A stretch of DNA of 64,000 nucleotides, from positions 2,480,001-2,544,000 of the forward strand of contig JAYWIR010000013.1 in NCBI GenBank assembly GCA_036172245.1, in the 5' to 3' direction. Under the pieces are notes generated by a model. That model searched no databases and was not told the origin of the DNA. It saw only the letters and a list, made by a program, of their open reading frames with translations. A program made the position numbers and the translations under genes. How positions within the stretch are numbered: position 1 is the stretch's first letter; every line of letters starts with the position of its first letter. This stretch comes from Raillietiella orientalis (Eukaryota). Shown piece by piece: positions 1,871-42,410 of this stretch.

Positions 1871-2696
1871 GGGGAGTCAGGAACGAGCGGGCATACCTTC
1901 AGGCCCGCCGTTATTCCAGGCGTCCCGACGTCCGTTGCCTGGCAGAATTCAAGGCTGAGGCGGAGAGGCAAGCCTGGCAGTCAGGCTCGGCCTTCTTGCT
2001 GGACCATCAGGGCCAAGAACGCTCCAGCCCAGCTCAGCTAAACCGCATCGTGCGGGAGTTCCACTCCTCCTTGTACGCGCCACTAACACCGGAGCGCCAT
2101 TTCGCGCAGCGCCTAATGCCGGATGGTGCTCCCGCGCTTAAGGAGGAGGATCGTTTCCGGTTGGCGGATCCGTTCACGATGGTGGAGATCATCTTCGTTA
2201 TCGAAAAGCTGAAGAAACGGAAAACACCAGGGGAGGACGGCCTGCCCGTGGAGTTTTACCATCGTTTCGCGCTAGAGCTGGCTCCCCTGGTGCTCAGGTT
2301 AAGTACGCTGATCCGCGAACACGGCGAATTTTCTGCCTGGTTCCGGTCAGCAAAAGTACGTCTCCGGCCGAAATCAGCAGACTTACGCAACTTTGGCAAC
2401 TGGTGTCCCATCACAGTAGTGAATGCGGACGCAAAGTTGTATGCCAACTTGTGGGCTGAGCGTTTGGGGCGGGTGGCCGCTTCCGTGGTGAGTCCCGAGC
2501 AGACCTACGCTGTTCCTGGACGTACCATGGAGGCCAACTTGTTCCTCTCCAACTCATGGTGGCAGTTGCGACAACGCGTTGCTCAGGATGTTCAACGGAG
2601 CCTCGCACTCCCCTCTGACCAAGAAGATCATGCAGAGGATAGGACGGACTCGGCAAGAGCCTTTGCCGTCGCGGTCGATCTGCACAAAGCATTCGA

Positions 2697-4747
2697 TTTT
2701 CACCCGGAATTCTCCGGGTCGTTTATTAAAAAAAAAACTTTCTAACGAAATTATTAATGGCTGTGGCAATGCTCCAGCCAGAAGCTTAGAACAACGAAGC
2801 CTGCCAATTAACCGGTTTCTAGACCTGTACGGTCCACCAAGGCAGCAGGGGAAAGGGGAAAAACAAAAAAACTAAACAAAAAAAAAAAACAAAGGATGGG
2901 AGGGAACGGGAAGGGATCACGGATGCTGCTGGGGCCGCATCATCCCTCTCAGGATGCTGGCAAGCTCTTTTTTGTTATGAACATCCAGGTGGGGCCATCG
3001 CGACGCCCTCAGGAATTGGGAGGCGCACTATATGGCGCCCTGATCGCTAGGTCCTCCCGTCGCCGTGCTCCAGGCGGCGACGATCCCACGAAGGCAGCAC
3101 AAGGCTGCCATCGAAAACGCTGGCCGCAGGGCGTCGGCAACGGAGAAGGATTTTAGTGCGTCCCTGGGATTGCTGCAAGGGATACCGATGGCCGCGGCAA
3201 AGCGGAACCAAAGGGGCCGAAGGGCAACACAGTCCACTAGGAGGTGGGGTAGGGAATCCCGTTCCCCGCACCTTACACAATTGAGATCCACCGCTCCCCA
3301 GGTCCAGTGGTGTCGACAGGCGTTGCAGGGGAGTCCCCAGTGCTGCAACAGGAATGCCGACTCTTGCCATTTTAGGGGGAGGATGGAAGTGTTCATAAGA
3401 ATCGGGGGTCACTTCAGATGTTCAATCGGAACATCCAGCAGCGCTCCCCAGCGCGTTTCACGACGACGCTGCTTTCTTTTAAATTTTCGCTAACCTGCTT
3501 TCTTTTTATTTTTGTTGGCGAGCTTTTTTTAAGTTCGTGGTTTTTTCTTCGACTTTTTTTCTTTTTCGCTGTGACTTCTTGCTATTCCGACACCTGACCG
3601 CTTTTGTCGATCTTTCCGGCATTCGTTGCCGGGGTGTCGGCTGAAGCCTGGACCACGGGAGTGGGTGGCACAGCTTGAGCGGCAGCCTTCGCCGCCAGTT
3701 TTTTCTGTAGTAGCCGCGCGCGTTTTTCTAGGTTCCTCGCAGAAACCACGCGCACAGCGGATTGTGGACACACTTTCCTCGTGTGGCCCATTGTCCCACA
3801 TACCAGGCACTGTACGTTGAGGCACCTCCTTTTGAGGTGTCCCGACGTTTTCAGAAGCCACAGTATTTGGGCTTCCCCACGTACCAGAGGTCGACGCTTT
3901 CTCCGCCGACAACCAGTTTGTGGGGAAGGGTAGAGCCCTCTTGAACGGTTACACGGGCAGCGGTGAGGCGGCACTGAACTGTGGTATAGTCCTCGAAAGG
4001 ACTAGGTTTCGTCCATACTGCATGCACCGTGCCTTCTTTTCCCAACGCGGGCGTAACTGTTCTTTCCGCATCCGCGCGGTAACTCCTAGAAGGTGGACCA
4101 CCATACTGCGGTCCGCCGTAACGGGAAGGAGCCTGCGTCTCCCCATTACCACGGGGGATTTAAGCAGACGTTGGGGCAGATCTGCATGCTTGCAGATCAC
4201 CTCTACGTACTGCACCCCGCTACGAATGGTCATAGCGCAGAGCTCCTCCTCTTTAACATCGAGAGCGCGCATCCCCTTCGAAAAGGCGCGCGCACTCTCA
4301 GAAGAATACAAATTTTCTACTATGTAGAATAGTGATGGGTTATACCCCTCTTCCACATAGGCAGATAATTCCGCCGCGGCTGCAGGCGATGGCGCCGACA
4401 CGACGGCGCTCCACGCCCGCTCTGAAGCGGGGACCGGTTTTGTGCAGGCGGATGCCGCCACCTCCTTCGCTACTGAAGGCGACGTTGCCGCCGCCCCCTA
4501 GCACTCCACCTTCTCTAGAGGCGACGTCGCCTCCGCTACCTGGCGCTCCAACTTCTCTAGAGGCGACGTTGCCGCCGCCACCTGGCACTCCATTTCTTCA
4601 GGAGGCGACGTTGCCACCGCCCCCTAACACGCACTGGTGGTCGTGTCAGGCATTGCTGCCTGATCGATCACCACCACACACGAAGACTACACCAAGGGAC
4701 GGTTCTTGGCAAGAAAAGCACCTAGGAAACACGTCCGCTCTAGCCGA
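2697..4747 (-). mobile_element. LINE copy A1, both ends present with a large internal deletion (~3452), antisense in G1 at RT motif KAFD
   Basis: 5' motif gcggacgtgttt at 4738-4727. ORF1 remnants in 3582-4461. ORF2 C-terminus in 3028-3396. 3' end aataaacgacccggagaattccgggtgaaaa. Degenerate TSD cacaaagcattcga (2683-2696) / cgtaaggcattcga (4748-4761). Confidence 0.9.
4478..4628 (-). repeat. 42-bp tandem repeat (~3.5 units, GGGNVASREVGAPG) in the N-terminus of A1 ORF1
   Basis: Unit ggcgacgt(t/c)gccNccgc..cct(a/g)gc(a/g)ctcca..ttct.. recurs at 42-nt spacing; absent from A2 and A3. Confidence 0.85.
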
Positions 4748-6675
4748 CGTAAGGCATTCGAATGCGTCGATCAGGATCTCCTTCTGAAGCTCTTGGAACG
4801 CATGGGTTTCCCGTCCGTGCTCCGGTCTTACCTGCGCTCCTGCTGGCGCAATGCGTACATAAATATTGGTTTCAGCGGCCGACACGTGTACGGCGTGCCA
4901 GTGCGCCGCGGCATCCGGCAGGGTGACAGCCTGAGCCCCTTGCTCTTCATCATCTTTTTCGAGTTGGTGCTGAGGGCATACAGGGTAACTTTGGCAACTC
5001 TGCCGAGCTCGTTTGCCGACACGCCTGCCGTGTCGGCCTATGCAGACGATCTTCTGCAGCTGCTACCCAGGTACACCCCGGCGAGTGCGCTCGAGTACTT
5101 CTTCGAGTTGCTGCGCCTCGGGACGGGCCTGGAGGTGAACAGCGCGAAGTCATTTATGGTCTTTGTCGGTTCGGCGTGGGATGGACGGTCGGACTGGATC
5201 CGCTTGGGGATCCTTACGGGCTGGTGCTTGAAGTACCTTGGCGTTCCGTTGGGGGACATACGCGAAGCAGAAGCCTGGTCCGACCGTCTCCAAAAGGCAG
5301 CGTTGGCGATCGTTCCGTTCCAGGATAGCAAGTTCTACTTGCAGGAACGGGCCGCGGTGTGGTACGCGTTTGCGGCTTCCCTCCTTCGCCCCCTACTTTT
5401 TGTTTGCCCCGCCCCTTTTTTCTTTTGAAAGCGAGCAGCGCGCCTCCCGAGGACAGTCCTTTGGGGCAAAGGGAGGTCCCGTGTGAGGCTCAAAGACTTG
5501 TGAGTTCCACGTTAGCACGGTGGTCTTGGCGTACTTACGCTGGAGCGCATGGAACTGCAACTCCAATTCAGGACTCTCGTCATCGCGGCCGAAATGTGGG
5601 ACACGCATCGGTGCGTTCCAGCACGCCTCCTGGCCCAACGAGCCTGCGGATCCTGCGGACTTTTGTCGTTTCTGTCTGCGCGCGTCTGCAGAAGAGCACA
5701 CTGTGGCTCTATGCTGCGACGCATCTTCGTTGCGGTTGGGGAGAACGCCTGGATCTCCTGCCTTCCAGGGAACTACTCTGCCTGGTTGCACGAGTCAGTC
5801 TCCACCTGGGAAAGGATCGACGTAACGGCGGGCACAAGGAACACTTGCCTGAAAAGCCACGCCCGCTGGACGCTGCAGGAGATCGTGCAGTCCCACGACA
5901 AGCTTCTGTGGGCCTTGATAACCACCCTCTCTTCAGTGCTGGCCTTCCTTGTGAATGCCAGGGACAGTAAGGAGCAGGGGAAATGGACTGTGTCCTGCAC
6001 CATAGGCGGCAGGACACAATTGATAAAGGCGTGGACATCTCGGCAGCTAGCGGAGGCTGCAACGCCGAGTGTCCCGCCCAACGGAATTCGACGCTGGGGC
6101 GAGCTACTCGTTCTATCTCCGGAGGAGATGAAGTGGCCCCCGGCGTCCTGGAACAGTGGATCCCTTTCCCTTAAATGGCAGGAGGTGGCGTTGCTTGTAA
6201 TGCATTGGGGTTACCCTGTAAAGCACGCCTGTATCACATCACCTAGGGGGCTGTGGATCCCCAGTGCGACCGGTGCAAGGAAAAAGAGACCTTCCCTCAC
6301 CTTCTCATTGAGTGCAGAGCCATCCGCCTTTTATGGGATCGCCTTACGGCGATCCTGGACTTGCGCGGATGCGGCCCCAAGGACGTTTTCAGGCGCCTCT
6401 TCTGTAGTGACGCCTTGTTCCCCCCGCTTCCGCTTGTTCCCCTCCCTGCCCTCTTATCCCTAAAACATTTATCCCCTCCCGTATTTCAACTTTTTATTTG
6501 TTTTGTTTTTTCTGTCCCAACCCCCGCTCATCGGAAGGACCTCTCCTGGCTAGCGCCGGCAACCAGCAAGCTGTTTTGGCGTGGTGCACCTTAGTGTTCT
6601 CCACTGGAAAAATTAATGTATTTCTATTTTTCGAAATAAATGCCCAGGCATATCCGGTTGAAAACCGCAGTGACG

Positions 6676-9389: not shown

Positions 9390-12300
9390 TTGTCACCGAG
9401 GTACGCCCGAGACGTTTATTCGAGAAAAATCTAGCCGCGGTACGAGGTTCCGCTCACGGGTATATGCACGGGACCTGTCGGGACGCCGGAACGCAACCCG
9501 GCGTAGCGTACCTCATCAGCGAAAAGGGATGGGGATAAAACAAAAATAAAAATAAAAATAAACCAGCAAAAAGAACATGGAGGGCGAGAAAGGAATCACT
9601 GCTTGCTGTGAGGAGGGCCCATCCTTTGAACGATGCCCCCGAGGTTCATCCTTATATTCCAGAGTTGGGGCCATCCACTAGCTCTCCGCATGGAGCGTTG
9701 GGCATATGGGATCACATTGATCGCGTTTGGATTCACTCCTTCGTTCTTGGTGTCACTCCAGGCCGCCACGATGCCTCGGACGCAGCACAAGGCTGCGAGG
9801 GCTGCGGCAGACAGCATGTCGTCCTTCACGAAGAGGGACCGGAGAACGTCTCTGGGCGTACTGCCCGTAGTGAGCCCGACGGTTGTTCCGAACCGTTCCC
9901 AAAGGGAACGGAGTGTAGCAAAGTTCACGATAAAGTGAAAGAGCGATTCTTGTTCTCCGCACCTAGCACACTCAGAATCCATAGCTCCCCTTGTCTAGTA
10001 GAAGCGGCGTGCGTTGCAGGGTAAACCCCAATGCAACAGCAGCAACGCCAAATCTTGCCACTTAAGGGGCAAGATCCTGGATTCTTGAAGCACCGAGGGC
10101 CACTTCAGCACATTCATGGGGATGGCGAGCAGCTCTCCCCATTTCTTCAGTCTTCGCGGCTGAACTCACGGGATCGTGGCGTTTGCCAGTCCTCCTGTTT
10201 TCCAGCCGCTGCTCATCTCCGTGCCTGCGATTCGGTAGGAAACTTGCAACCTTGGCTTCTGACGGGCGTGGAGCGCCCTCCGGAGGTAGATCATCGCCGT
10301 AGCAAGGGAAATCGCATCCGCCCACGTGCGTCTTGCAAGAAATTCAAGTATGTCCCGTAGGTTGCAGAGAGCGCATAGGCCGATAAGCAGGCAGTTCATC
10401 GGATCATTACTCCTTTGGTTTTGCTTAGCGCAGGTGCCAGCAGTCTCCTCCATCCAGGCGGAGGAGTTGTCGGGGACACGAACCATCCAGCTGTTCTCCT
10501 TCGCCAGGGTTGCCAAGCGCACGAGCAGTAGGCAGCATCTACGGATCTTCCGGCAGGGGCACAGAAGAAAAGACGCGAGTCCTTCGCACAGGGACACACG
10601 CCTGGAGAGGAGGCGGGCCGAAATGGCCCGAAGGGTGATCCACATCTTTACTGCGATGGAAAAGGTTCGCCACCGCAGCTGGATTTACACGCTCTCCAGC
10701 GTCAGGATGCTGAGACTGCCGTCCCGACGCGGAGTGCACAAGTCCTTCAGAGAGATTCGTGGCCTCCCCTTACCCCAAAGCGCGACGCGGAGTAGGTCCT
10801 TCATCCGCTTCTTGCATTCTACAGTGGAAGAACAAACAAAAAGCAAGGGGCGGAGGATAGGGGCCGCAAATTCGTTCCAAAGCGCGCCTCGTTCTGGCAA
10901 GTGAAACTTGCCTTCCAGGAACGGGCCGATCGCCGTCTCGACTTTTTGGAGACAGCTTCCGCAGAGGAGAAGTCTTCCAACGACACACCAAGATACTCGA
11001 AGCACATTGCCGTGGGGATCACCGGACGGACCCAGTCCTGGTGCCCTGCCCACGCCGCACCGACTGGGACCACCGTCGACTTCGCCTTGTTAACCTGCAG
11101 TCCTATCCCACGGTTGAGCAGATCGAAGAAACCTCCGACCGCCTTCGCCGGGGTGGACAAAGGTATCAGGAGCAGAAGATAGTCGGCAAAGGCTGCTGAG
11201 GCGGACGTGCCGTCGCACGAGCACTCCAAGGATGCTAAAGTCACCCTATTCGCTCTCAGCAACAACTCAAAGTAGGTGCTAAAGAGCTGGGGACTGAGAT
11301 TGTCGCCATGCATTATGCCCCGCCGAACCAACACGCCATACACCTTCTGACTACTGAAAAAGACCGTAATTATCGCATGGCACCAGCTGGAGCGCAGGTA
11401 GTTTATCAAAGTGGGTGGCAAGCTCATGCGACGCACGAGCTACAACAAAAGCTCCGGCTCTACGCAGTCGACCGCCTTGCGTGCTCCAGGGTGCACGTGT
11501 TTTTTCAGTGCTCCTCGTGCCAGGAAGTCTCACCCAGTGCAAGCGTCGTGTGATTCGATGGTCGATCAGGCAGCGATGCCTGACGCGACCACCAGGGATG
11601 GCCAGGGGGCAGCGGCAACGTCGCCCCCAGAGGCGATGGAGGTGGAGGCATCCGCCCCCACAGAATCGGTCCCCGCTGCAGCGCAGGCGTGGTGCGCCGT
11701 TGTGTCGGCGCCATCGCATGCAGCCGCGGCGGAATTGTCGGCCTATGTAGAGGAGGGGTACAACCCCTCATTGTTCTACAGGGTAGGCAATCTATATTCT
11801 TTAGAGAGCGCGCGCGCCTTCTCGAAGGGCATGCGCGCTCTCGATGTGAAAGAGCAGGAGCTCAGCGCTATCACCATCCGCAGCGGGGGTCAGTACGTTG
11901 AGGTGATCTGCAAACAAGCAGAGCTGGCCCGAAGACTGCTTAAAACGCCCGTGGTGATGGGGACGCGCAGGCTCCTCCCTATTACGCCGGACCGCAGCAT
12001 GGTGGTCCACCTGTTAGGTGTTACAGCGCCGATGCGCAAGGAACAGGTTCGCGCCGCGTTGGAGGAATACAGAACGGTCCACGCGCAGTGGACAAAAGTT
12101 AGTCCTTTCGAGGATTATACGGGGCTGTAACACGGCCTCACTGCTGCGCGCGTGACCGTTCGGGAGGGCTGCACTCTTCCCCAAAAACTGATGGTCGAAG
12201 GCGAAACCGTCGACTTCTGGTATGTGGGGAAGCTGAAATACTGTGGCTTCTGCAATACGTCGGGCCACCTCAAAAAGAAGTGTCCCAATGTGCAGTGTCA

Positions 12301-15300
12301 AGTATGCGAAACCATGGAACACACGAGGGAGGTGTGCCCTCAAGCAGCAGTGCGGATGGTTTCCAAGAGAAACCTTAAAAAACGTGCCCGGCTTTCGCAG
12401 AAAAGGCTGAAGGCGAAAGCTGCCGTGAAGGCTGTGCCACCCGCGCCCAAGGCCCAAGCCGCACTTGAGACCCCGGCGAACAACGCCGAACAAGTCGAGA
12501 GAACAAGCCAGGAGCCTGGGTGGCAGGTGCCTACGGCCAACAAATCAAAGAAGGACAGGAGGATGGAGAAAAAGCTCGCGTTTCGCCAGAAAAAACAGCA
12601 GGCAAGCGAGCAAATTATAGAATGCAGCGTTGTCGTCGAGCGTATTCCCGACCGCTGCGAAAAAGAACTCGCCGCTACCGACGACAACCCCTCTGTTGAC
12701 TCCGTCAACAGCGAGGGCAGCGAGCCGGCGGCGGAGTCAGTCATCGACACCACCATCGATGACGTAGCATCCGCGCGAGCCGCGGAGGAGCTGGCAGCCT
12801 CGTTGCAGCCAGAACCCTCCACGGCCAGTTGGAGGACGTGTTTTTCCTTCACTCCTCAAAGGGTAGTAGGAAAGCGCTTTCTTGTGTGTGGTGTTTGTTT
12901 ACATCGTCGGTGTCCAATGGCCACGATGCCAGAGGACACCGCGATGGAGGTGGGAGTGGGGGAGGCTAGTTCGCCTTCACAGCCTACTGGAGCAGGGGCA
13001 GCCGCCCTGGAATCATCCCCGGCCACGCCGAGGACATGGAGCGCCATGGTGGCCGCGCCCAGCGCAGAAGCCATGGCGGAGATGGCCGCATACAAGGCCT
13101 CCGGGTACAAGCCTTCGCTTGTGTACCAGGTAGGCAACTTGTTCGACGGCCGGACAGCGCGCGCCTTCAGCAAAGCGTTGAAGGACGCGAATGTTACCGA
13201 GAAGGATCTGGACGGCCTCTCCGTCCTCAGCGGCGGGCAGCGGGTCGAGGTGGTCTGCAAAGATGTTTCCTTTGTCTCACCGCCTAATCCATGCGCCGCT
13301 GAACGTAGACGGCCTCAAGATCCTTCCAGTATCAATGGACCCCTCCGTGGTGGTCCGCATGACTGGCATCACCAGCCGCATGACGCGGACAGCGGTTGGT
13401 GAGGAATTAAGAAACTACGGTGAGGTGCACGCGCTGTGGCCAAAACCCTCCATTTTCGACGGCTTCGATAGCATTTTTGGTGGGCAGGCTGCAGCGCGGG
13501 TCACCGTAAGGAAGAATTGTGGGCTTTCCCACACACTACAGGTGGCGCAAGAAAACGTCGACCTCTGGAATGTAGGGAAGCTTCGGTATTGCGGGCATTG
13601 TGATACCGTAGGACACCTACGTAAAAAGTGTCCCAATATACAATGCCATTTGTGCGGGGAGCGGGGCCACGTTCGGCGCGTGCGCTTCAAACGCCCCACC
13701 CCGGTTCCTCCTGCCGCGAAAAAAGCGCAGGGGAAACGCGCTTCAAAGGTCTCTAGACCTAAAGTGGAAAAGGGCCAACACAAGCTGCCAACACCTCAAC
13801 CTCCGGAGCGTAAGCCGGAGGATAAACCTTCCGAAACGGTGGAAGGCGAAGAGGGATGGCAGCTTGTAGAGGCCAGAAAGCCTAAGAAACTCCCACTTGC
13901 GGAAAGCAAAGAGCGCAAGACGGCCGGTAAGCCGAAAAAACCCGGTCCGCGCACGAAAAGTCTGTGCGAGTGCACGGTGTCACTGGAACGAATCGTCGTT
14001 CCCGAGATTGCCACCCGGAGCGTCGATCCTCCCCTTGCCGTTTCCGCTGCGCCCGAGGCTCGCGACGGCGAACCCTCTGTTTACACAGAGGGTGAGCCGC
14101 GCGACATAGCGGCGGTCGAAGCCGCGGACGCCGCGTTCGCGCAGGCGGCGGAGGAGCTCGCGGTCACGCTGGCCGAGCGTAAGAACCCCTCGCGCAAGGC
14201 CTTGCGAAGGCCGGCTCCGGCGAGAAAGGCACCCACAGGTGAGTTAGACCTGAGGGCCGGAAGTACATCCTCCTCCTCGGAGGCACCCCCCAGGAAGTCG
14301 GGACGCAAGTCGCAGAAGCCCAGGAGGCGCCTCCCCTCCACCAGCGAGGAGGAGAAGACGGAAGCCGTCGCCAGCGTGGGAAATTCGGAGGAGGAATTCC
14401 CACGCTCGGAAGCCGTCGATGCGGCCACCCCCATGGAGGAGGGTGAACAGGTAGGCGCGACTCCACCTGCGGGTGATCCGGCCGACGCGCCGGCACCGAT
14501 GGAGGAGGGGGACCAGGTGCCTTCAGCACCTGACCCCCCTCCTCCACCTAGCGTCCTGCCCCAGCAGGTGGCGGACGCCGCACTGCCATCTTCCCAGGAG
14601 TAACACCTGGGCTCGCCAGTCGCCGTCGGATTCGCGCGGCCTGTTGGAATGTCAACGGGCTGCGCGACGACGGTAACAGGCGAGATACAGCCGACACCCT
14701 GCGGGAGTTCGACCTGGCCCTGTTGCAGTAGATCCACGTGATCACCGCGGCAGACGTCCAGGAGATCGAGACGATCGCGGGAGGTCGGCTGTACTGGCAA
14801 TGCGGCATCCGCAACACCTGCGGGGTCGCGTTCTTCGTGAAGCCGGCCATCGACGTTGCCGTGAAGGGCGTGCGCTTCGATGACGACGGTCGGGTCGGTC
14901 AGCTGACTCTCGGCTGTTACGACTCGATCGAACTGATCGTCACGAATGTGTACGCTTCCAGCGGTAAACAAGGATACAGCGACCGCATCAGGCTGCTGGA
15001 ATCCCTAAAGCGCGACTGGCTGGCGGACACGAACGTGCGGAAGGCTCACCTGATAGCGGGAGATTTCAATCTCCGCCTGCTAACAGGTGAGCCGGAAACA
15101 CAAGTGAACGCGATGAACGAGTTGTGCGCCGCCATGCGTGCGCCCAACTTGTTCGCGGGTGAGAGAGGAATGATCCGCAGCATCGACCACGTCTTCCTCG
15201 ACGCTGACCTGTGTTCACGGGTCGGCACACGGGGGAGGGTTGCGTCGACGTTGTCGGACCATTCCCGGCTAATTTTCGAGATGCGGCCTCGCAACAAAGG

Positions 15301-17840: not shown

Positions 17841-19862
17841 ATGGCAGAAATGCCTGAGGACACCGCGATGGATATAGGAGGGGGAGAGCCTTGCTCCTCT
17901 CCCCAACCCACGGAGGTGGTGGCAACCGCCCCCACGGAGGCGACGGCCGCCGCATCCCTGAAAAAGGGGGCAACCGCCGCCTCGGAAGCGAGGGCAAAGA
18001 CCCCCTTGAAAAAGGGAACAAAAGCCCCGCTGGAACAGGGTGCAACCGCCTCCTTGTAAAAGGGGACAACCGCAACCCTGGAAAAGGGCACAACCGCCTC
18101 CTTGAAAAAGGGGGCACCTGCACCCTCGAATGCGTCTTCATCATCGCCGAAGACCTGGAGTTCAGTGGCTGCAGCCCCATCTCCTGCAGCCCTCGCCGAG
18201 CAGAAAGCCTATCTGGAGCAGGGATACAAGCCGTCCTTGATATACAAGGTAGGCAATCTGTTTGTCGGGAACACCGCTCGTAACTTTGAAAGGGAGTTAC
18301 AGCGATTGGATGTTAAAGAGGAAGACCTGGAAGGTCTCTCCGTGATGAGTGGGGGCCTGCGGGTGGAGCTGACGTGCAAAAATGCAAGACTGGCTCAACG
18401 CCTGCTGAACACTCCCATCACTCTGGAAGGCCGAAAGGTCTTCCCTGTAACGGAGGACCGCTCCATTGTTGCCCACCTTACGGGTGTAACTCTTTGCATG
18501 ACCAAAGCTGGCGTGCAGGAAGAGTTACAAAAACATGGTACGGTGCACGCGCTCTGGAACAAGCCCAACGTCTTCCAAACATACGGAAGACTGTTCAGTG
18601 GCATGGCTGCAGCGCGTGTGACGGTCCACGAAAACGGTGGGCTGCCCCACAAACTCGACGTCGGCAACGAGGTCGTCGACGTCTGGTACGTGGGCAAGCC
18701 CAAGTACTGTGGGCACTGTGATGCAACAGGGCACCTGAAAAAACGGTGCCCCCACATCCAGTGCTTCCACTGCGGCGAAAAAGGCCACCTGCGGAAGGTG
18801 TGTCCTAAACGCGAAACCCCGGCTCCCCCTGCTTTGAAAAAAGCCAAAGGGGAACGCGCGGGGCGATCGGACAAGCCTAAGAAGGCACCCGAGAGGCGGA
18901 ACCCACAGCCAGAGCCCGAACCCGTGCAGCAAGCGCCGGTCGAGGGTACTCCCGACGACGCTGGAGAGAGCGAGGGCTGGCATAAGGCGAAGCCTAAAAG
19001 TAAAAAATTAAAGAAAACCGAAGAACCGACAGCGGAACCCGCGACATCTTCTTTAAATAGGAGACAACGCCGCGCGTTGCTCCGCGAATGTTCGGTCGCT
19101 TTGGAGCGAGTGGAGATCCCCGAGACCTCCACCGGGTGAGATATCTCCCGCCTCGTTGACGCCGAAGCCGCGATCGAAAAAGGCGAACCCTCTGTGCAAA
19201 CAGAGGGGGAGCCGAGCGACGCGCTCGCCGCAATCGAGGACGCCGCCTTCCAGCAGGCGGCGGAAGAGCTCGCGGCCGAACTCGCGGAGCGTGAGAATGG
19301 CGCGCGAAAGGCCTTGCGAAGGCCGGCCGCGAGCAAGGCACCTCGGACAGGTGACCACGAACCGGATGCCGGAAGTGCGTCCTCCTCCGCGGAGGCGCCT
19401 CCGAAGAAGACTGGACGGAAGTCCAAGAATCCCAAGAGGCGCATCCCGACAAAGAAGAAGAGGGACGCACCGGCATCCGAGGGGGAAGCCGGCAGCGTGG
19501 GAAAGGAGGGAGGGATTTTCCCACCCTCCGCTACAGAGCAACTGGAGACCCCCATGCAGGAGGGGGATAAGGTGAGTGATTGCCGCCCCCTCCCATCGGT
19601 GGAACCTGTCCAGGAGATAGCCATGGAGGAGGGGGAGCAGACAGCTCACAACCGCTCCCCCCTGCCGTCCAACGCAGCCGACGAATCGGCCCCCATGGAA
19701 GAGGGGGAGCAGGTGCGTGAAACCCGCCCCCATCAACCGTTGCGGTCCGCCGAGAAATCGGCCCCCATGGAGGAGGGAGAACCGGTGCGCGGTGATCCCG
19801 TTCCTCCATCCGTCCCGCCCGACCAGGTGGCGGGAGCCCCATTGCCACTTTCCCAGGAGTAA
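17841..19862 (+). pseudogene. ORF1 of copy C: gag-like nucleic-acid-binding protein with two CCHC zinc knuckles and two in-frame stops
   Basis: ORF-track pieces 17808-18059, 18102-19139 and 19194-19862 share one frame, broken by TAA 18057 and TGA 19137. Knuckles CGHCDATGHLKKRC and CFHCGEKGHLRKVC. Confidence 0.88.
17940..18117 (+). repeat. Imperfect 24-bp tandem repeat (ATASLKKG-like) in C ORF1
   Basis: Repeated (g/a)caaccgcctccttgaaaaagggg-like units. Confidence 0.75.
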
Positions 19863-29600: not shown

Positions 29601-30425
29601 ACTGGGAAATATACGGACGGATCTCGAGGGCTTCCTTCAACGGATGGGCCCTTATCACAGCGCTTAGTTATCCCTTCCCTGCCCTCCAACTTCTTTTTGT
29701 CTGTTTATTTTTTTTGTTTTTCGTTTTGTTTTATCCCGATCCCCCTTCGCTGCTCAGGAACGCTACGCTGGGCTGCGTCCCGGCGTCCCGGCAGGTCCAG
29801 TGCATATAGCCGTGAGCGGGGTCTTGTACCGCGTATGTAGAGTTTTTTAAAAATAAACGCCCCGGGCGTACCCGGGTGTAAACCTTCAAGGCTGGCAAGA
29901 AGGCCGTAAGGCGTCCGGACTCCCCTCAGGAGTCCCCCACTTCCGACCCCGAGGTGGAGGCCGGAAGCGCAGCCTCCGTTTCCACGGCACCGCGCAAGAA
30001 GGCTGGACGTAAGTCCACAAAGCCAAGGAAGCTCGTCTTCCCCGTCGATGGAGAAGAGATGGCTTCAGCAAGCGAGGGTGCCATGAGCGTGGGAAACTCT
30101 CGGGACCCGTCGCCCGAGAGACTCCCACGCGCGGACACGGAGGGGATGGAGGGGGTGGAGGCCGAACAGGTGCCTCAGGTGCCTGAGAAGGCCGAAACCC
30201 GCATGGACATCCCTCCTGCCTCGCAAGAGAAGGGCTCCCCCACACCTTAATCTTCCCAGCAGTAATGCCGGGAATCTCCTCCCGCCGTCGTCTGCGCATC
30301 GCCGTTTCGAACGTGAACGGCATGACAGACGCCGGCAGGAGACGAGACATGGCCGCCCTTCTGGAGTCCTACGACCTTGCACTGCTGCAGGAGATCCACG
30401 TGATCTCTGCAGAACAAGCGCAAGA

Positions 30426-32426
30426 TATTTCTCACCCGTTCACGCCGGGGCGTTTATTCCATATAACATAACCAAAAAAAGCAATTATACAAAATAAACC
30501 AGTTGGGAACCAAACTCCCAACCGACGACTGAACAAGAATGAAGAGAATATTGCTGGCACGCAGGCCAGAGTAACAGTTTTTTGAACGGTGTGAGGGGGG
30601 CGGGAAACACAAAGAAACCAAAATAAAATAAAAACAATGAATAAGTAGGACGGGACAAGGATCTTTGGGATCGATCTGGAAGACACGGGGATAAAAGCAA
30701 GGGCACCGGAAATTTTACTGAGCGAACGGGGACGGGGTATGGGTGGGCGAGAGGTCGCAGGGGTCTCCGGATTACGCCGTTCACAAAGGTGTGTAAACCG
30801 GCGATGTATGCCGGTGATTTCCTCATTCACCTTGTCACGAAGATAGACCCCCTTGAAGCCTTCTCCATGAATTGAGCTGCAAGCAGGTGAGCCTCCCTTC
30901 GCTGCAATGACAACTCCAGGGCGTAGCGGGCCTTCACGATGGAGAGAACGCAACACATGGTTGCGACAATCGCGCTACCGAAAGTCCATTTCTGCTGAAG
31001 AAGCGCCGCAGCACATCAATGGCAGTGCCTCCTTGTGGCATGATGGCCGAAGTGAGCCTTCGCCACAGTTCCCGGAGGTCACCGCAGTCCAGCAAAAGGT
31101 GCGGAAAAGACTCGATCTCTCTGCACCTTGAACAGTTTGGCAAAGCAGCTCCCCCGGAAACGATGCTTCGCTGCCTATTACAGTGTAATGCACAATGTAA
31201 AAAGAGCAGCACATCTTGTTTCTACTTAGGAAAGAACACGGAGCTGTCCAAACAAACGGGGGGAACCACTATCTCTCCGGGGGGCACAATTAAATGTTCG
31301 CTCCACCGAAGCAGGCCCTTCGCCCGATTCCGAGGTGTGGCGGCATGCACCAGCTCCTATGTCGTCCAGCTGCCGAGGAGCTTACTGACTCCCGCTATTT
31401 TGCAGGAGAACTCCCATTCCGCCGGTAGGCAACCGTCGTTGCTTGCCCTGAGGGCAGACGGCGCTGCGGCGAGTGGTGTGGCGGCCAGACGATCCGACAA
31501 CTTCTTGTCCTGCATGACTTCGTCCATTTGATGACTGAGGAGAAGTCGCAAGCGTCGAAGATCTTCCGGGCGCGTTCCTTCGGAAGCTGCCCACGATGAA
31601 AAAGATTCCTGCCGCCATGCATGAATGTTCATGGGGCGGCAGGAGATCCAGCTTTGGGCTTCCAGCAGTGAGGACAGCTGCCTCAGCGGGAAGCCAAACC
31701 CTATTCTGGTGTGCCTAAAGTGGGGTAGCAACGAAAGCAGTCCCCCGCTTCCCGTGCAGCGCCTCAGTATAAGGCGTGCGGGTAAGCACCACCGCGTACA
31801 CCACAGCTTGACACAGAGCCGCAGCATGCAAAACTGCACCTGCAGTTCGATGCTGTTCAAGTCGAGGATGCCCAAGCCTGCATCCTGACGCGGCGCCACC
31901 AAGTCTTTAAGTCTAACACGGGATCTTGCAGCGCCCCACAACGCTTTGCGTAGAAGGCGCTGCGCCCAGACTTTGACTTCCTGGGGGGGTGGACAAACAA
32001 AAAACAGGGGGCAGAGGAGGGATGCAACGAAGGTGTTCCAGATGCAGGCCCGTTCCGGCAAGACGAACTCGCCTCCTGAAAACGGGCCAAGTGCACGCTC
32101 TGCCTTCCGATGGCAGTCCGACCACGCTTCTGAGATGCAGAAGTCGCCCAACGGCACGCCAAGGTACCTGAGGTACCTGCCCGTGGGGATCCCCAGGTCG
32201 ATCCAGTCGGACTGCCCCTCCCACGTCGCACCCACCGGAACAACCACACACATACTCCTGTTAACGCTCACGCCCGCACCGCGACCAGTGAACTCAAAGA
32301 TGTCTTCAAGCGATGTCGCCGGGGTGGACATGCGCAACAAGAGAAGCAGGTCGGCATAGGCTGCCACAACCTGCGTACCTGGACAGGTGCTCGGCAGGTT
32401 GGCGAGCGTCAGCCTGTAAGCCTGCA
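30426..32426 (-). mobile_element. LINE copy E1, 5'-truncated, antisense in A2 APE at EQAQ
   Basis: Minus ORF 31357-32427 (late RT) and a zinc finger at 30934-31212. 3' end aataaacgccccggcgtgaacgggtgagaaata. Perfect 13-bp TSD aacaagcgcaaga at 30413-30425 / 32427-32439. Confidence 0.93.
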
Positions 32427-35400
32427 AACAAGCGCAAGAGATCGAACGGATCTCCGGAGGGCGGCTATGGTACAGGTGTGGGAGAGCGAAAAGTTGCGGT
32501 GTCGCCTACCTGCTTTGGCCAGCCGTCGAGGCCGCGGCTCGGGGCGTGCGGTTCGACGATCACGGTCGTGTCGGCCAGCTGACTCTCAGGTGGTCGGACT
32601 CGATCGATCTGATTGTCACCAACGTGTACGAGCACCGAGCGGCGCGGAACTGATGAACAGGAGGGCGAGGAAAGAGTTTTTTCTTGTTCTCCGGCGAGAC
32701 TGGCTGACCGAAGCAGGCGTGCGGAATGCCCATCTGGTTGCAGGCGATTTCAACGTTCGCCTGAAACCAGATGGGCAGATTCCCGAGCGTGACCTGGTCA
32801 ACGAAGTCTGCATGGCGGTGCACACCTGTAATTTGTTGGCCAGTGCACCGGGGATGGAAGACAGCATTGACCACGTGTTTCTTGACGAGCACCTGTGCCC
32901 TTGCGTGGGCAGGCGCGGCAAGTTACCGTGCGAGATGTCCGACCATCGCCCGCTAGTCCTCGAGATCCATCCGCGGGACCGGGGCCCCCCCTCATCAGCG
33001 TGGCGTCTCCCAGGGGACTGGCTGAAGCTCCCGGACGCGGCGGAACATCTCCGCACGTTCATAAGGAGCTTCAGGCTGCGGACACTCCAGGATTGGAACC
33101 CCTTCAAGTGGGCGGTCCAGGAGTTCTGCGACCAGTTTCCTCTGCACCGCCTACCTACGGGTTTTGGGACCGGGGTCCGTAACGAGCGAGCCTGCCTGCA
33201 GGCCCGTCGTTACGCCAGGACCCCCGACATCCGCAGGCTGGCGAAATACAAAGCGGGAGCCGAGAGGCAAGCCTGGCAGTCCGGATCGGCCAGCTTACTA
33301 GACGATCTGGCCCAGGAGCACTCGGCACCTGCCCAAACCCGCGGCCTGCTGCGGAGTTACTACTCCTCCCTGTATGCCAGGGCACCTCCGGAGAGGAACG
33401 TCTCACGACTTCTGCTTCCGGAGGGCGCTCCAGCGATCGGGGAGGAGCAGAGAAAGACCCTCGACGAGCCTTTCACGATGGACGAGATCCTCTCGGCCAT
33501 CGGAAAGCTCAAGAGGCGAAAGACTCCAGGGGAGGACGGCCTGCCCGCGGAGTTTTATCGTACTTTCGCGGCTCAGCTAACCCTCCTGGTACAGCAACTC
33601 ACCTTGCTGATACGCGAAACAGGTGACGTTCCCGCCTCGTTTCGTTCGGCAAAGGTGCGGCTCCTCCCCAAGTGAGGAGATCTGAGGAGCATGAACAACT
33701 GACGTCCCATCACAATAGTGAATGCGGACGCCAAGTTGCTAGCAAAGGTCTGGGCAGAGCGTCTGGGACGCGTTCCCAACATCTTCATCAGCCCGGAACA
33801 GACATATGCTGTTCCCGGGCGAAGCATGGAGGCGAACCTGTTCCACGCTTCCACCTGGCTAGAGCTCCAAAATGAAAGGAGCTTGGAGCGCGGCCGGAAT
33901 TCCGGTGCGTGCGCCGGCAAGGGGTTGGATGGTCGGGGGGGGGAGGGAGCCCTTGCGGTCGCAATCGACTTGCGGAAAGCATTCGATTGCGTCGACCAAG
34001 ATCTCCATCTGGAGCTTCTGGAACGCTTGGGCTTCCCGGCCTCATTAGTGGCCTATCTGCGCTCCTGCTGGCGCAACGCGCTCATCAACGTTACTTTCAG
34101 CGGGCAGACCGTGCACGGCGTGCCGCTGCGGCGAGGGATCCGGCAGGGAGACAGCCTTAACCCCTTGCTCTTCATTACCTACTTTGAGTTGGTACTGAGA
34201 GCGTACAGGGGAACTCTGGCGCACCTGCCGCACCAGTGTGCCGGTACGCCGGCCGTTTCAGCATACGCGGACGACCTTCTGCTGCTGCTCCCTATGTACA
34301 CCCCGGCTGCGGCGGTCGAGGAGTTCTTCGACCTGCTGCATCGGGGAACCGGACTTACGGTGAACAGGGCGAAGTCGTCCGTGATGCCAGTTGGTGCGGC
34401 GTGGGCAGGGCAGCAGGACTGGGTCCGTTTGGGGATCCACACGGTGAGGTACTTCAAGTACCTTGGTGTGATGTTGGGGGACTACTCACCTGCGGAAGCG
34501 TGGTCCGGCTGCCTCCAAAAAGTAGAGACGGCGATCGGCTTGTTCCGAGTCAGCAGGTTTTTCCTGACTGAACGGGCCGCGGTTTGGAACACGTTCGCGG
34601 CTCCTCTCCTCCGCCCTCTGCTTTTTGTTTGCCCCCCCATAGAGAGAATTAAAAAGCGGACAAAGGACCTCCTCCGTATCGCCCTTTGGGGCAACGGGAG
34701 GGCCCGAGTTTGCTTAAAGGACTTGTGCGCTCCTCGTCGGGATGGTAGTCTGGGCATCCTGACGCTGGAGCGGCTGGAGCTTCAGCTCCAATTCCGATTG
34801 TCGGCACTCGTTCCAGAGTTGTGATGCACCTGTTGTTGCGTCCCTGCACGTCTCCTTCTCCAGCAAGCCACCGGCAAGACGGGACTGACGTCGTTTCTTG
34901 CACTCCGTCGCCGCGTCAACCGATGAGGACTCCAGCTACGGAGGGTGGCTTCGCTGTATCGGAAAAACCCAGGATTGCTCACCTTTCGCCCTTTGAACGG
35001 TAGTGCCTAGTTGCAGGAAACCGTTCGAACGTGGGGACAGTTCGGCATGCAACGCTCTCAACAGGAACGAAGGTTCCTGTTTGAAGGTTACAGAAGTTGC
35101 ACGCTCTGCGAGATCCTGGAGGATCCAAAGAAGAGAGCGTGGGCAGGAAGAACCCCCCTCTCTTCAGTGCTGCCCTCCCTGATGGAAGATCTGGACAGCG
35201 ATGTTGCGGCGAAGTGGGAGGATTCATTTACAATCTGCGGAAAGGAGAAGAAGATAGGAGAGTGGAAGACGGGCCAGTTAACAGACGCTGCGTCCCCGAG
35301 TACGCCTCCCAATGGACTTCTGCGCTGGAGCGCGCTGCTCGATGTTCCCATTGAACATCTGAAGTGGCCCCCGGTGCTCATGAACACTTCCGCCCTCCCC

Positions 35401-36940
35401 TTAAAATGGCAGGAGTCGGCTCTCCTGTTGCAGCACTGGGGACTCCCCTGCAACGCCCGCCGACACCACTGGACCTGGGGAGCGGTGGACCCCAATTGCG
35501 TCAGGTGTGGGGAACGAAAGTCCCTCCCCCACCTGCTAGTGGATTGTGTTGCCCTTCGGCCCCTTTGGTTTTGCTTTGCAGCGGCCATCGGAATCCCCTG
35601 CAGCAACCCCAGGGACGCACTTTAAGCCCTCTTTGTTGCCGACGCCCTTCGGCCAGCGGCCTCGTTACAGCTTTGTGCTGCCTACGCGGGATCGTCACCG
35701 CTTGGAGCAAGGCTACGGGAGGACAACGCGACCAGGGTGCCATCCAGCCAGCCTCCCAGTTCCTGAGGAGGGCGTCCCGATGGCCCCACCTGGATCCAGG
35801 AATACAGAAGGAGCTTGTTGGCATCCTGCAAAGGATGCAACGGCCCCACCAGCAACTGTGATCCTTTCCCTTAACCTCCCAACTTTTCCTTTCTTTTTTG
35901 TTTTGTTTTTTGTTTTTTCCATTTCCCGCTGCTGCCGTTTTGACCGTACAGGTCTGCGAACCAATGAACCGGCAGCCTCTGTGTTTCTTAGTGCGCGGCT
36001 GGAGCAATGGTCAAGCCACCGCACGTCTTTGTAAATGTTTATTTCACAACAAACGGCCCGGCGAAATCCGGGTGAAAATCGAACGCCTCCTGGAGATCGA
36101 CTGCGAGCGCTAAAGCCCCCTTCTTCGCCCGGATATCCCTTCCCTGTTGGGAATCATTTTAATGTACAACTGGCAGCCCCAAAGTACGGTTGGAAATTTT
36201 CCCGTTCCCGTTTTTTTGACTCCTCTGCAGGTGCATTCACGTACTTTCAAAGACGAGCTTGGCCTCCATACTTCGCACGGGAACAGCATAACTCTGCTCC
36301 GGGCAAATTATGGATTCTGCCACCTGCCCCAGACGCGAAGCCCATAGCCCTGCTATCAACATGTCGTCCGTATTCACGATCGTGATCGGACGCCAGTTCA
36401 ATTTTCTGAGGACTTCACCTTTCGAGAGGAGCCTCACTCTGCCCGACCAAAACGAGGAGGCAACTTCGCTTTGGTCTCGGATCACCCTTGTCGAATAAAG
36501 CAGCAGGGGTGCGAGCTCTTATGCGATGCTCTCAAAGAACTCCGCGAGTAAGCCGTCTTCCCTTGGAGATTTTCGCCTCTTGAGCCTATTCATACCAGAA
36601 AGAATTCCGCCGGTGGTAAAAGGCTCGTCAAGGCTTAACATCTCCTCCTCCCCTATTGCCGCGGCGCCTTCCGGAAGCAAGCGCCGAGAGGCGTTCCGAT
36701 CCGGGGGCTTCCTGGCGTAAAGGGAGGAATAAAAACTCCGCACGAGATGCCGTACCGACGCCGGGGACAACCATTTTCTGCCCTGGGCATCCAGCAGGCT
36801 GGTCGACCTGGATTACCAGGTTTGGCTTTCAGCCCCAGCGCTGTATTCGGCCAAGCGACGGACATTAGCGGTTCTCTCGTACCAGCTGACCTGTAACTAA
36901 GCCCTATGTTTGCGAGGACCCTCGCCAAATCTCACGGTCA

Positions 36941-38962: not shown

Positions 38963-41045
38963 TTATCACCCAAGTGCGCCGGGGCGTTTATTAAGAAATT
39001 ATCCGGGAACAGAGTTCGTAAACAAAGGAAAAACCAGAGACGAAGGGGATGGAATCCCCGACACGCAATTCAATATGCCGAAAGTCCGAAATGGAAGGGA
39101 AAGGGCCACATCTACACTACTGTGAAAAAATAAAAATATGGAGGGCAAGGGACAGGGGACTTTGGTAACGCCTTTCCTTCCTTTCAGAACCGGCGATGGA
39201 TGCCGGCGAACTCTCTTCTTTCGTCCTCTGGCAGATAGGCTCACTCGGCAGCCAACGATATGCTTGCGCTGACTAATCCGAAGAGCTTACGAAGGATGTC
39301 CAGCTTCTACAACTCTCGGTGGGCCTTGTCGATGGCGCGGGTGCAAAACACGGTTGCAACGACAGCACCCAAACACAGGCCGCCTGGCGTGAAGAAGTGG
39401 CGCATCAAGTCCCTCGCGGTATCCCCCTGGTGCGGGAGAGCTGAGGCCAGCCTCCACCAAAGTCCTAGGAGGGCACTGCAGTCCAGGCTCAGGTGCGGGA
39501 GCGTTAACACTTCCACGCACCGCTTGCAGTTTGGAGAGACAACCCCCCGGAAACACGGTTCGTCCGCTGGTTGGAGTGAAAACTTCAATGCACCAGAACT
39601 ATGACTTCCTGCTTCTACGAAAGGAAGAACACAGAAGTGTTGAGACACGAGGGAGGGACCACAAGTTCTTCGGAGGGCACACTCAAGTGTTTCCTACATC
39701 GGAGGAGTCCATTCGAGATATGGCGAGGCGTGGCGGCGTCTGCCAGCTCGCAAGTCCTCCAGCTGCCAATGGATCGTGTTGTTGCTGCGATGGTTCAGGC
39801 GACCTCCCAACTTGCCGGTTCGTAGCCGTCATCACTTGTTCTGAGGGCTAACAGCGCTTCGACGAGGGGCTTGACGGCCAGGCGAGTCCACTTATCCTGG
39901 CTGTTGCACACCTCATCCACCTTGCAGTACAGGGAGAGGTGAGCGCAACAGAGTTCCAGGAGTGAAACGTCCTGTTGCTTTGCCCAGCCATGCAACGGTT
40001 CCTGCCGCCAGGATTAGAAGTTCGTTGGGCGGCAGGAGATCCATGTGTGGGCTGCCAGGAGCCGATAGAGTGGTTTCAACGGGAAACCGAAGCTATTCGT
40101 GGAGCGCTCTGTTTGCGGACGCAGCGACAGAAGTCCGTCGCTGCCGCTGCAGCGCCGCAGGAGCTGGCGCGCAGGAGCGCACCACGGAGTGGACCAAAGG
40201 TTGGCGCACAAGACCAACATTCGAAGCTGCACCTGCAGCTCGATTCTCTCCAGCGTCAGGATGCCTAAGCCAGCATCCCCACGCGGAGCTGCCAAGTCTT
40301 TGAGGCGGATCCTGGACCTCGCAGATCAATACAGAGCATTCCTCAACAGGCTGTGTGCAAAAAGCTTGCCTGAGTAGAAAAGCGGGCAAACAAAGAGCAG
40401 AGGGCGCAAAAGCAGGCCAACGAAGGTGTTCCATATGGCATCCCGCTACGGCAGGACGAACCTGCAGAAAAGTAACGGGCTCAGAGGACTCGTAGCCTTC
40501 CGAAGACAGTCCGATCACACTTCCACACTGCTGATATTCCTCAGCGGGACGCCCACATATTGGATGTGCGAAGCGGGCAGTATCCCCAGGCGGATCCAGC
40601 CGGACTGCCCTTCTCACGCCGCACCAATAGGAACGACCACGCTCTTTCTCCGTTTTATGCTCATTCCCGCTCTCCGGCAAACCAGCTCGAAGAAATTCTC
40701 AAGAATGGACGCCGGGGTGGTCATGGGTAAATGGAGAAGCTGGTCTTCAGCGTAGACCGCCACCGACGGCGTTTCTGGAGAAGAGCTCGGCAGGTTGGCC
40801 AGCCGCAGCCTGAACGCCCTCAGCACCAACTCAAAGAAGATGCTAAAGTGCAACGGGCTCAAGCTGTCGCCCTGCCTGATGCCCCGCCGCACAGGCACGC
40901 CGTACACGTGTCAGCCGCTGAAAAAGATAAAAATGAGCGCGTGGCGCCAGCAAGTTCGCAAATAGGCCTCGAGGTGTTCTGGGAGACCGAGGCGTTCCGG
41001 GAGCTCCAGAAGGAGATCCTCATTCCCGCAGCCGGACGCTTTATA
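38963..41045 (-). mobile_element. LINE copy E'1, 3' half, antisense in B'3 APE at GGRL; cut by A3 at a degenerate KAFD
   Basis: RT remnants (GIRQGDSLSP, YAED) in 40614-40907. Zinc finger in 39307-39648. 3' end aataaacgccccggcgcacttgggtgataa. Confidence 0.88.
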
Positions 41046-41050
41046 CGCTC

Positions 41051-42410
41051 GAGGGCGGAAGTGTTTTCTCGGTTCTCCTCGTGCCAGAAAGTCTTCCCTA
41101 AAGCAAGCATCGTGTGGTTCGTTGGTCGATCTGGCAGTGATGCCTGACGTGTACACCAGAGGTGGCCAGGGCGCAGCGGTAACGCCGCCCCCAGAGGCGA
41201 TGGAGGAGGGGCATCCGCCCCCCCTCCATCGCCTCTGGGGAATCAATCATCGCTGCAGCGCGAACGTGGAGCGCCGTTGTGTCGGCGCCATCGCGTGCAG
41301 CCGCGGCAAATTGTCGGCATATGTAGAGGAGGGGCACAACCCCTCATTGTTCTAGAAGGTAGGCAATTTATATTCTTCAGAGAGCGCGCGCGCCTTCTCG
41401 AAGGGCATGCGCGCTCTCGATGTGAAAGAGGAGGAAATCAACGCTATGACAAACCGCAGCGGGGGTCAGTACGTTGTGGTCATCTGCAAACAAGCAGAGC
41501 TGGCCCAACGACTACTCAAAATAACCGTGATGTTGGGGACGCGCAGGCTCCTCCCCATTACGGCGGAACGCAGCATGGTGGTCCACCTATTAGGCGTCAC
41601 CGAGCGGATGCGGAAAGAACAGGTTCGCGCAGAGTTGGAAGAGTATGGAACGGTCAACGCGCAGTGGTCGAAGGTTAGTACATTTAAGGACTACACGACG
41701 GTGCAACATCGCTTCACGGCTGCACGCGTGACTGTTCGGGACGGCTGCACTCTCCCCCACAATCTGGTGGTCGATGGCGAAACCGTCGATCTATGGTATG
41801 TGGGGAAGCCGAAATACTGCGGCTACTGCAATACGTCTGGCCATCTCATAAACGAATCCCAACATGAAGTGCCAAGTATGGGGAACAATGCGTCACACGA
41901 GGGAGGAGTGCCCAAAAGCAGCAGTGCGGTTGGTTTCCAAGAGAGACCGTAAAAAACGCGCCTGATTGCTATAAAAAAGGCTGGCGACGAAACCTCCGCG
42001 AAGGCTGTGCCACCCGCGCCCAAGACCCAGGCCGCACCCGAAACCCCGGCGACCAACGCCGAAAAAGTTGAGGGAGCCAGCCAGGAGACTGGGTGGCAAG
42101 TGGCAACGGCCAAAAAATCAAAGGAGAGGAGGATGGAAAAGAAAGTCGCCTACCAACAGAAGAAGAAAGAGCAGGGTAGCGCGATAATTGAAGAGTGCAA
42201 CGTTGTCGTCGAACGCGTGCTCGATGTTACCCAGCGCTGCTAGAAAGAACTCACCGCGACCGACGACCTCCCCTCTGTTGACTCTGTCAACAGCAAGGGG
42301 AGCGAGCCGGCGGCGGCGTCAGTCACCGACAGCACCAACGATGACGTAGCCTTCGCAAGAGAAGCGGAGGTGCTGGCTGTCTCGTTCCAGCCCCCCCCTT
42401 CCGCGGCCAG
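41051..42410 (+). mobile_element. LINE copy A3, 5' portion (ORF1), cut by B2
   Basis: 5' gcggaagtgttttc at 41055. ORF1 homologous to A2 (MRALDVKEEE.., CGYCNTSGHL). Confidence 0.9.

Follow-up and report, generated by a model that had tools for sequence, protein, structure and literature searches.

Recurrent insertion of an L1-like LINE family into the KAFD-coding DNA of other LINEs points to a site-specific element

[quoted passage not shown] Here we analyse a 64-kb stretch of the Raillietiella orientalis assembly GCA_036172245.1 (contig JAYWIR010000013.1, positions 2,480,001 to 2,544,000; this whole stretch is called the window below), in which copies of one L1-like LINE family, family A, lie in other LINEs at the codons for the reverse-transcriptase (RT) motif KAFD. 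Recurrent site-specific insertion of family A is the best reading of the sequence, and within the window it is well supported.

Most target-specific LINEs with an apurinic-type endonuclease belong to the R1 and Tx1 clades, as stated in the relevant part of PMC4640811. The R1 clade (R1Bm, TRAS1, SART1) resembles family A in its N-terminal apurinic-type endonuclease, RT and C-terminal zinc-finger-like motif, and in the use of one defined sequence in a multicopy target with a fixed stagger and a constant duplication, which is given as 14 bp for R1Bm in the pertinent passage of PMC1919474 and is 11 bp for family A. R1-clade targets are 28S rDNA or telomeric repeats, whereas the target of family A is another transposon, and family A is known from sequence alone. 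The Tx1 clade, found in animals, shares with family A a specific target inside another mobile element: in the sections of PMC4494074 drawn on here, Tx1L lies in Tx1D (piggyBac), Tx1-Mar in Mariner-N4_AMi and Tx1-9_AMi in Harbinger, Tx1-8_Crp and Tx1-4_AMi target LTR retrotransposons, and insertions are sometimes in tandem, with the duplication sandwiched between them. The Tx1 targets described in those sections belong to one or a few close families (~90% alike) of DNA transposons or LTR elements, whereas family A uses a conserved catalytic-motif coding stretch across LINEs that are 37-45% identical in protein, relatives of the invader included. On the best reading, what is new is therefore the kind of target, and the mode is that of known R1/Tx1-type target-specific LINEs. 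The working threshold for target specificity given by Kojima is more than 20% of flanks (PMC4494074, same sections); for family A, the count is three of four events within the window. A full-text literature search, with Repbase reports and subscription journals outside its reach, returned no LINE reported to target the RT motif of other LINEs.

By description, the window also resembles the Zepp/ZeppL clusters of green algae, which are GC-rich clusters of mutually nested L1-type LINEs; the portions of the Zepp/ZeppL papers used here leave the cause of this pile-up unexplained and report no specific target sequence for Zepp (PMC3446292, PMC8226300, 10.1101/2022.06.16.496473). In Chlamydomonas a single ZeppL family is described (portions of 10.1101/2022.06.16.496473), as against at least six lineages in the window.

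The window consists throughout of nested non-LTR retrotransposons, L1-like LINEs encoding an endonuclease and an RT, with a G+C content of 54-63%. Positions in the second open reading frame (ORF2) are numbered on the longest unbroken ORF2 frame in the window (19796-23449, 1217 amino acids, aa), in which KAFD occupies aa 590-593. Three of the four family A events in the window are found at the KAFD codons, all three antisense to the host and at the same nucleotide position. The first is A1, in host G1:

1873..2696, plus strand: upstream part of G1, ORF2 aa 318-593, with the left duplication copy AAAGCATTCGA at 2686-2696 (from tblastn and the sequence)
2697..4750, minus strand: A1, belonging to family A and internally deleted at ~3454
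4751..6664, plus strand: downstream part of G1, ORF2 aa 590-1115 and 3' end, with the right duplication copy AAGGCATTCGA at 4751-4761

Both junctions of A1 are present, and the target duplication is 11 bp long (AARGCATTCGA, with 10 of 11 positions matching). The G1 protein reads VDLHKAFD to the left of A1 and KAFECVDQDLLL to its right, and because both copies are host sequence, the duplication is real. The 3' part of A1 (2697-3454) is 91% identical to the copy A4, and its 5' part (~3607-4750) is 79% identical to the 5' segment of A2; at the deletion (3454), contigs of sequencing run X1 continue differently. Between the 3' end of G1 (..TTGAAAA, 6664) and the element H1, which has a full-length 5' start (6676), lie 11 bases, with no visible target duplication.

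The second event, A2 in host B'2, is larger and interrupted:

9390..11478, minus strand: 3' half of B'2, ORF2 aa 590-1217 (11478..9599), 3' end ..TGACAA, with TCGACCGCCTT at 11468-11478 (A orientation)
11479..12831, plus strand: A2 5' segment with full-length 5' end, 5' untranslated region (UTR) and ORF1 region, colinear with A5
12832..29882, plus strand: B1, a B-family element that entered A2 later (duplication of ~16 bp)
15406-26858, minus strand: A5, carried by B1 and itself carrying the longest-ORF2 element (~17753-23655)
29883..30425, plus strand: A2 middle segment, ORF1 end and ORF2 aa ~19-77, 75% identical to and colinear with A5 25512-24962
30426..32430, minus strand: E2, a later 5'-truncated E/F-clade insertion in A2, with duplication AAGCGCAAGA (30416-30425 and 32431-32440)
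32431..36078, plus strand: A2 3' segment with the rest of ORF2 (aa ~74 onward), followed by 3' UTR, stem-loop and TGAAAA (36073-36078)
36079..36931, minus strand: upstream half of B'2, ORF2 aa 315-593 (36929..36078), with TCGAACGCCTC at 36079-36089 (A orientation)

A2, a full-length copy, stretches over 24.6 kb (11479-36078, plus strand) because other LINEs, B1 and E2, are nested inside it; each of its three segments is colinear with A5, a sister element that has no interruption there. The flanks TCGACCGCCTT and TCGAACGCCTC form a duplication matching at 9 of 11 positions. Both belong to a single B-like host on the minus strand, one flank in each half, and the protein of this host reads ..VDLQEAFD at the site. 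Two other assignments were considered in this region. A 5' end of B1 at 11483 was dropped in view of a step in identity at 12814-12832 (~80% before, ~94% after) and a second 5'-end motif there. The host of the element X11 was ruled out as the upstream part of B'2, being 69% identical to B3 (83% for B'2) and 84% identical to H1.

The third event, A3 in host E'1, is seen at its 5' side:

39331..41042, minus strand: E'1, ORF2 aa 589-1163 (aa 589-1091 at 41045..39543), stopping at the decayed site AAAGCGTCCGG (host sense)
41043..42413, plus strand: A3, a family A 5' segment with full-length 5' end, cut off at 42414 by a B-family insertion

The 5' end of A3 (~41043) joins E'1 at the same base as in the other two KAFD events, and the E'1 protein at this 5' junction reads YKASGCGNEDLLLEL. 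The first-pass annotation had proposed all three placements: A1 antisense in G1 with a duplication at KAFD, A2 in B'2 with a duplication, and A3 at a decayed KAFD site in E'1. Each is borne out by the flanks listed above, at 2686-2696 and 4751-4761 for A1, at 11468-11478 and 36079-36089 in the two halves of one host for A2, and by the reading of E'1 at its junction with A3.

Written with a slash at the point of joining, the 3' junctions are ..TGAAAA/TCGAATGCTTT in G1 and ..TGAAAA/TCGAACGCCTC in B'2, and the 5' junctions of the three KAFD events are ..TCGAATGCCTT/, ..TCGACCGCCTT/ and ..GGACGCTTT/. The two events with both junctions (A1 and A2) each carry an 11-bp duplication, and the 5' junction is identical in all three full-length 5' ends. 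Downstream of the KAFD site the hosts share ..GAGATCGAC. The duplicated bases keep the wobble base of each host (GCA at either side in G1, GCG at either side in B'2), an argument against gene conversion from a donor.

The hosts had been described earlier as distinct families, so that one composite could not explain the three events, and the comparison of hosts and inserts agrees. Over ~480 aligned residues (aa 594-1090), protein identity is 45% for G1/B'2, 44% for G1/E'1 and 37% for B'2/E'1, and 77% for A2/A4. In a maximum-likelihood tree of 11 RT fragments, from which three short rows (X1, X11 and A1) were omitted, E'1 clusters with E2 and F (support 100/100), B'2 joins B1, B3 and the longest-ORF2 element (100/99), and G1 stands alone. 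This host phylogeny had been named beforehand as a check, and in it each of the three hosts sits in a separate clade with its own support, so that they are not one recent duplicate. The B and A clades each include members whose KAFD site is intact. In DNA, identity between the hosts over the 600 bp next to the junctions is 63-70%; between the A copies it is 75-87% over the first 600 bp and 79-91% over the last 600 bp. Since a copied composite is expected to show equal divergence on both sides, the three host lineages, the closer likeness of the A copies than of the hosts and the host-specific wobble bases together exclude a duplicated composite.

The concentration of ends at this site was compared with chance. 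Five of the 57 internal ends of 39 tblastn segments fall in the interval aa 588-594, where 0.34 would be expected (binomial P 2.5e-5, with the 57 ends coming partly in pairs). Of the 15 element 3' ends found in the window, those at KAFD comprise two of the three A-type ends and none of the 12 from other families.

Outside the assembly, sequencing run X1 (share 0.20) gave 65 contigs, mostly 85-95% alike, one of which is at least 99% identical. A G-like contig of this run (23 differences in 297 bases) reads across an empty site, as ..GCATTCGA followed by CTGCGTCGACCAGGATCT. A joint from 2578 to 4748 in one contig is compatible with an empty G-like copy and was not counted. The run yielded no extra A flanks because its cover of the A 3' UTR is too low (depth 0.5-4 over 2748-3182), and this low cover is no evidence. 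An exact metagenome scan for the A 3' end, written as a degenerate pattern, had no match, and a scan with the A2 RT protein gave two loci at just 22-24% identity, which were not used.

The ORF2 of family A encodes an apurinic-type endonuclease, an RT and a C-terminal Cys/His motif. The Pfam domain RVT_1 is found in A2 (33703-34824, E 5e-19) and, weakly, in A4 (E 9.2e-5). The endonuclease motifs NVNG, QEIH, GDFN, SIDH and SDH, which we take to be the catalytic ones, are kept in A2 and A4, and the endonucleases of these two copies differ from those of A5 and B mainly between GDFN and SIDH. In L1 and R1 endonucleases, that interval contains a hairpin loop linked to the choice of target, and we treat this as a lead only. 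The family A 3' end consists of a stem-loop and then TGAAAA, with the terminal sequence ..CCGGGTGAAAA.

Taken together, family A is probably a sequence-specific L1-like LINE that lands, driven by its endonuclease, in the KAFD-coding DNA of other LINE families. In the mechanism we propose, the A protein would bind its own RNA through the conserved 3' stem-loop, which would be the handle for the RT. Judging from the junctions, the A endonuclease would nick the sense strand of the host LINE just past 5'-AARGCNTTCGA-3', and the freed 3' end (..TTCGA-3') would prime reverse transcription of the A RNA. The junctions themselves show that the host sense strand, with the end ..TTCGA-3', was the primer strand, that the A cDNA begins at ..TGAAAA and that full-length copies are joined with precision. 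At the two 3' junctions the A copy ends ..GGGTGAAAA against TCGAA.., antisense to the host. The second strand is cut 11 bases off, just before AAR in host sense; both specific cuts would be made by the A endonuclease, as in R1Bm, TRAS1 and Tx1L (PMC1919474). By the precedents of R1, TRAS and Tx1, specificity would reside in the endonuclease domain. Each A insertion at KAFD splits the RT gene of its host.

The fourth event, A4, lies elsewhere:

58154..61811, minus strand: A4, a family A copy off KAFD, its 5' side interrupted at ORF2 aa ~75 by a plus-strand element from 61812

The 3' end of A4 is at 58154, and the adjoining minus-strand flank (58153-58146) reads TCAAGCGC, as the first-pass annotation had it; its count of six matches in eight included a free N, and the real figure is five of the seven specified bases of TCGAANGC, a score attained at 1.6% of positions in the window (P 0.016). 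Against the full 11-bp site the flank matches at 5 of 10, reached by 10.7% of window positions (P 0.11). A match this weak at both 8 and 11 bases cannot separate DNA-sequence from positional recognition, and the earlier claim that A4 speaks for the former is not supported. The flank was also said to lie in an ORF1; it lies ~700 bp upstream of an F-like ORF2 start, which makes this plausible by colinearity only. An alternative reading is that the flank represents a few transduced bases of the parent's flank. The search for an empty paralogue of the A4 site found no match to the first ~400 bp of the flank elsewhere in the window.

Several observations weigh against site-specific insertion by family A. 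There are just four A events, the sequence evidence comes from one 64-kb window, and one of the four, A4, sits off KAFD. Six KAFD sites in the window are empty (in the longest-ORF2 element, B1, B3, A2, A5 and A4), those of B1, A2 and A5 match AARGCNTTCGA perfectly, and perfect TCGAANGC octamers number 18 in the window; on its own, the short site is therefore insufficient or rarely used. Many of the empty KAFD sites are in younger elements. No A copy in the window is intact, and neither the 3' part of A3 nor the remaining half of E'1 was found there. The Exo_endo_phos match of A4 scores 21.1 bits, under the curated Pfam cut-off of 24.5; over aa 67-619, A4 shares 61% identity with the longest ORF2, and the endonuclease of the latter clears the cut-off at 42.3 bits. 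Finally, the A/host junctions are without independent read support, as no contig of sequencing run X1 bridges one.

Among the other explanations, the one that survives best, which we nevertheless regard as unlikely, keeps the site specificity and has the site picked mainly by nucleic-acid pairing and not by the endonuclease protein. By one route, a read-through A transcript carrying the parent's downstream TCGAANGC would base-pair with the target once nicked, a route already put forward for R1/R2 co-transcripts; by another, the RT-coding part of the LINE RNA would pair with homologous host DNA and expose the sense strand. The primer end TTCGA would pair with a read-through ..UCGAA, the A4 flank opens with TC.., maybe a few transduced bases, and conserved coding stretches of other LINEs (KAFD, GFGV and aa ~77) have antisense insertions from several of the window's families. 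Target co-transcription can indeed strengthen target-specific integration, according to the relevant section of Kojima 2015 (PMC4494074). However, the B family uses its recurrent site in sense orientation, and homology of RT-coding sequence leaves unexplained one precise 11-bp stagger specific to family A. Moreover, known apurinic-type specific LINEs get their specificity from the endonuclease, as described in part of PMC1919474.

We consider it very unlikely that family A has no real specificity and is merely drawn to LINE-rich, perhaps centromere-like chromatin, with KAFD a chance structural or compositional hot spot. The window being all LINE, every insertion in it must hit a LINE; GCATTCGAATGC in G1 is a 12-bp palindrome, and A4 lies elsewhere. 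Against this, the same nucleotide, strand and 11-bp stagger recur three times in hosts with just the DNA identity given above, no end from the other families falls at the site, and the clustering of breakpoints exceeds chance.

That one ancestral host-plus-A composite was copied, via segmental duplication or gene conversion, is largely refuted. A single blastn match of 69% does run across a junction (4588-5406 against 11641-10833), and the window junctions at 38964 and 54627, with 81% identity on both sides, look like one copied composite. Yet the KAFD hosts belong to three lineages, with intact sites inside the B and A clades, the inserts are more alike than the hosts, and the duplicated bases fit each host and not a donor. 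An assembly artefact, with chimeric joins in a repeat-rich region, is the least probable of all: the scarcity of near-identical contigs and the lack of bridging ones in sequencing run X1 leave room for it, but mis-joins do not make true termini (5' start, 3' stem-loop, tail) beside matching 11-bp duplications, and the host halves are reading-frame-consistent at the junctions.

Pfam searches of 25 long frames of the window found RVT_1 in seven, a CCHC knuckle in three and Exo_endo_phos in two; zf-CCHC was found in ORF1 of three elements and not in ORF1 of A5, the sister of family A. A C-terminal Cys/His motif and a CCHC-bearing ORF1 would be compatible with the L1 clade. The top solved-protein match of the longest ORF2 is human LINE-1 ORF2p (E 4e-45), with R2 reaching only 2.7e-11, and RVT_1, Exo_endo_phos and zf-RVT are present in its nearest Atlas clusters. 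A homologue search with this protein returned five hits from 8000 scored candidates, the best of them just 25% identical. The element that encodes it (17753-23655) looks the youngest: its 5' start is full-length, its ORF1 frame (18060-19139) contains a CCHC knuckle, and its duplication is AACTTGGCGT; it lies antisense within A5 at aa ~500. Nesting is six deep, from H1 through B'2, A2, B1 and A5 to this element. An Rfam scan of the window found nothing, and a tandem-repeat scan found just a 24/48-bp repeat at 18001-18113 and a 42-bp repeat in the 5' region of A1 (4477-4630; 3.7 copies, 81% matches), the latter not repeated in A2 or A3.

A GCGGACGTGTTTT-like sequence opens the full-length 5' ends. 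All 15 element 3' ends found have the same layout, with AATAAACG, a G+C stem-loop (CCCGG..CCGGG), TG and a short family-specific tail:

2697-2741, 23611-23655, 29838-29882 and 36034-36078: examples of such 3' ends
TGAAAA: tail of family A
TGTAAA: tail of family B
TGGCAA or TGACAA: tails of family B'
TGCAAA and TGAYAAA: tails of other families

The common stem-loop suggests a recognition feature for the LINE RT. After TG the tails comprise 3-7 bases with a final A count of 1-4, and none of the 15 ends carries poly(A). Zepp has a poly(A) tail at its 3' end, from which the short tails of the window differ.

Other families in the window also recur at particular sites:

KAFD: site of family A
GFGV, aa ~316: site of B'
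ORF1 region of A: site of B
near aa 77: site of E/F-type elements
794-1878 (X1), 9390-11478 (B'2) and 55061-55755 (X11), also 36932-36953: elements at the GFGV site, with hosts G1, H1 and an H-like element
30416-30425/32431-32440: interruption of A2 at aa ~75-77 by E2, with AAGCGCAAGA
61804-61824: interruption of A4 at aa ~75-77 by a full-length plus-strand element from 61812

B'-type elements (tails TGGCAA/TGACAA), followed by CGCCGAARCCC, lie antisense just past the GFGV codons, and a full-length plus-strand element from ~36941 adjoins B'2 at the same codons. The insertions of X1 in G1 and of B'2 in H1 are independent, as their flanks align over ~40 bases only, against 81% identity of the inserts. 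For H1 and X11, where the flanks are 85% and the inserts 79% identical, a single copied composite may account for both cases. B' at the GFGV codons thus clearly has at least two independent hosts.

Full-length B elements are found at one site, in sense orientation, in the ORF1 region of A2 (12816-12832, 29883-29899) and A3 (42398-42414), with a CCTCCACGGCCAGTTG-like duplication of ~16 bp. Since the A parts are ~80% and the B parts ~94% identical, these look like two separate B insertions. At ORF2 aa ~75-77, A2 and A4 are each split by an antisense element, 7-8 bases apart. At 38040-39396 and 53700-55060, a B-like ORF2 is cut at aa 86-88 and followed by an antisense E-type 3' end, TGACAAA; with 81% identity on both sides, this junction could be a duplicated composite or another fixed site. 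At 53100-53110, the 3' end of B3 (..TGTAAA) runs directly into a 5'-truncated B copy (53107 onward) with no visible duplication. Such head-to-tail joins, B3/B as well as G1/H1, could stem from template switching or from repeated use of one site.

We tentatively extend the reading of family A to a guild of L1-like lineages, each with a fixed landing sequence in conserved coding stretches of other lineages, and put its chances at somewhat under even. Victims cannot lose such targets at the protein level. If true, mutual sequence-directed hyperparasitism would build and renew a LINE-only island with no chromatin cue needed, and would give a concrete reason why Zepp-like islands, in some algae candidate centromeres, cluster with themselves, a behaviour so far unexplained. 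If several families do likewise, they would also form a natural set of apurinic-type endonucleases with different long sites, available for comparison.

For family A itself, a LINE that uses the DNA coding for the RT active-site motif of other LINEs would be a parasite of parasites. Its target would be multicopy, harmless to the host genome, renewed by any LINE burst and constrained at the protein level, and each insertion at KAFD would kill a competitor.

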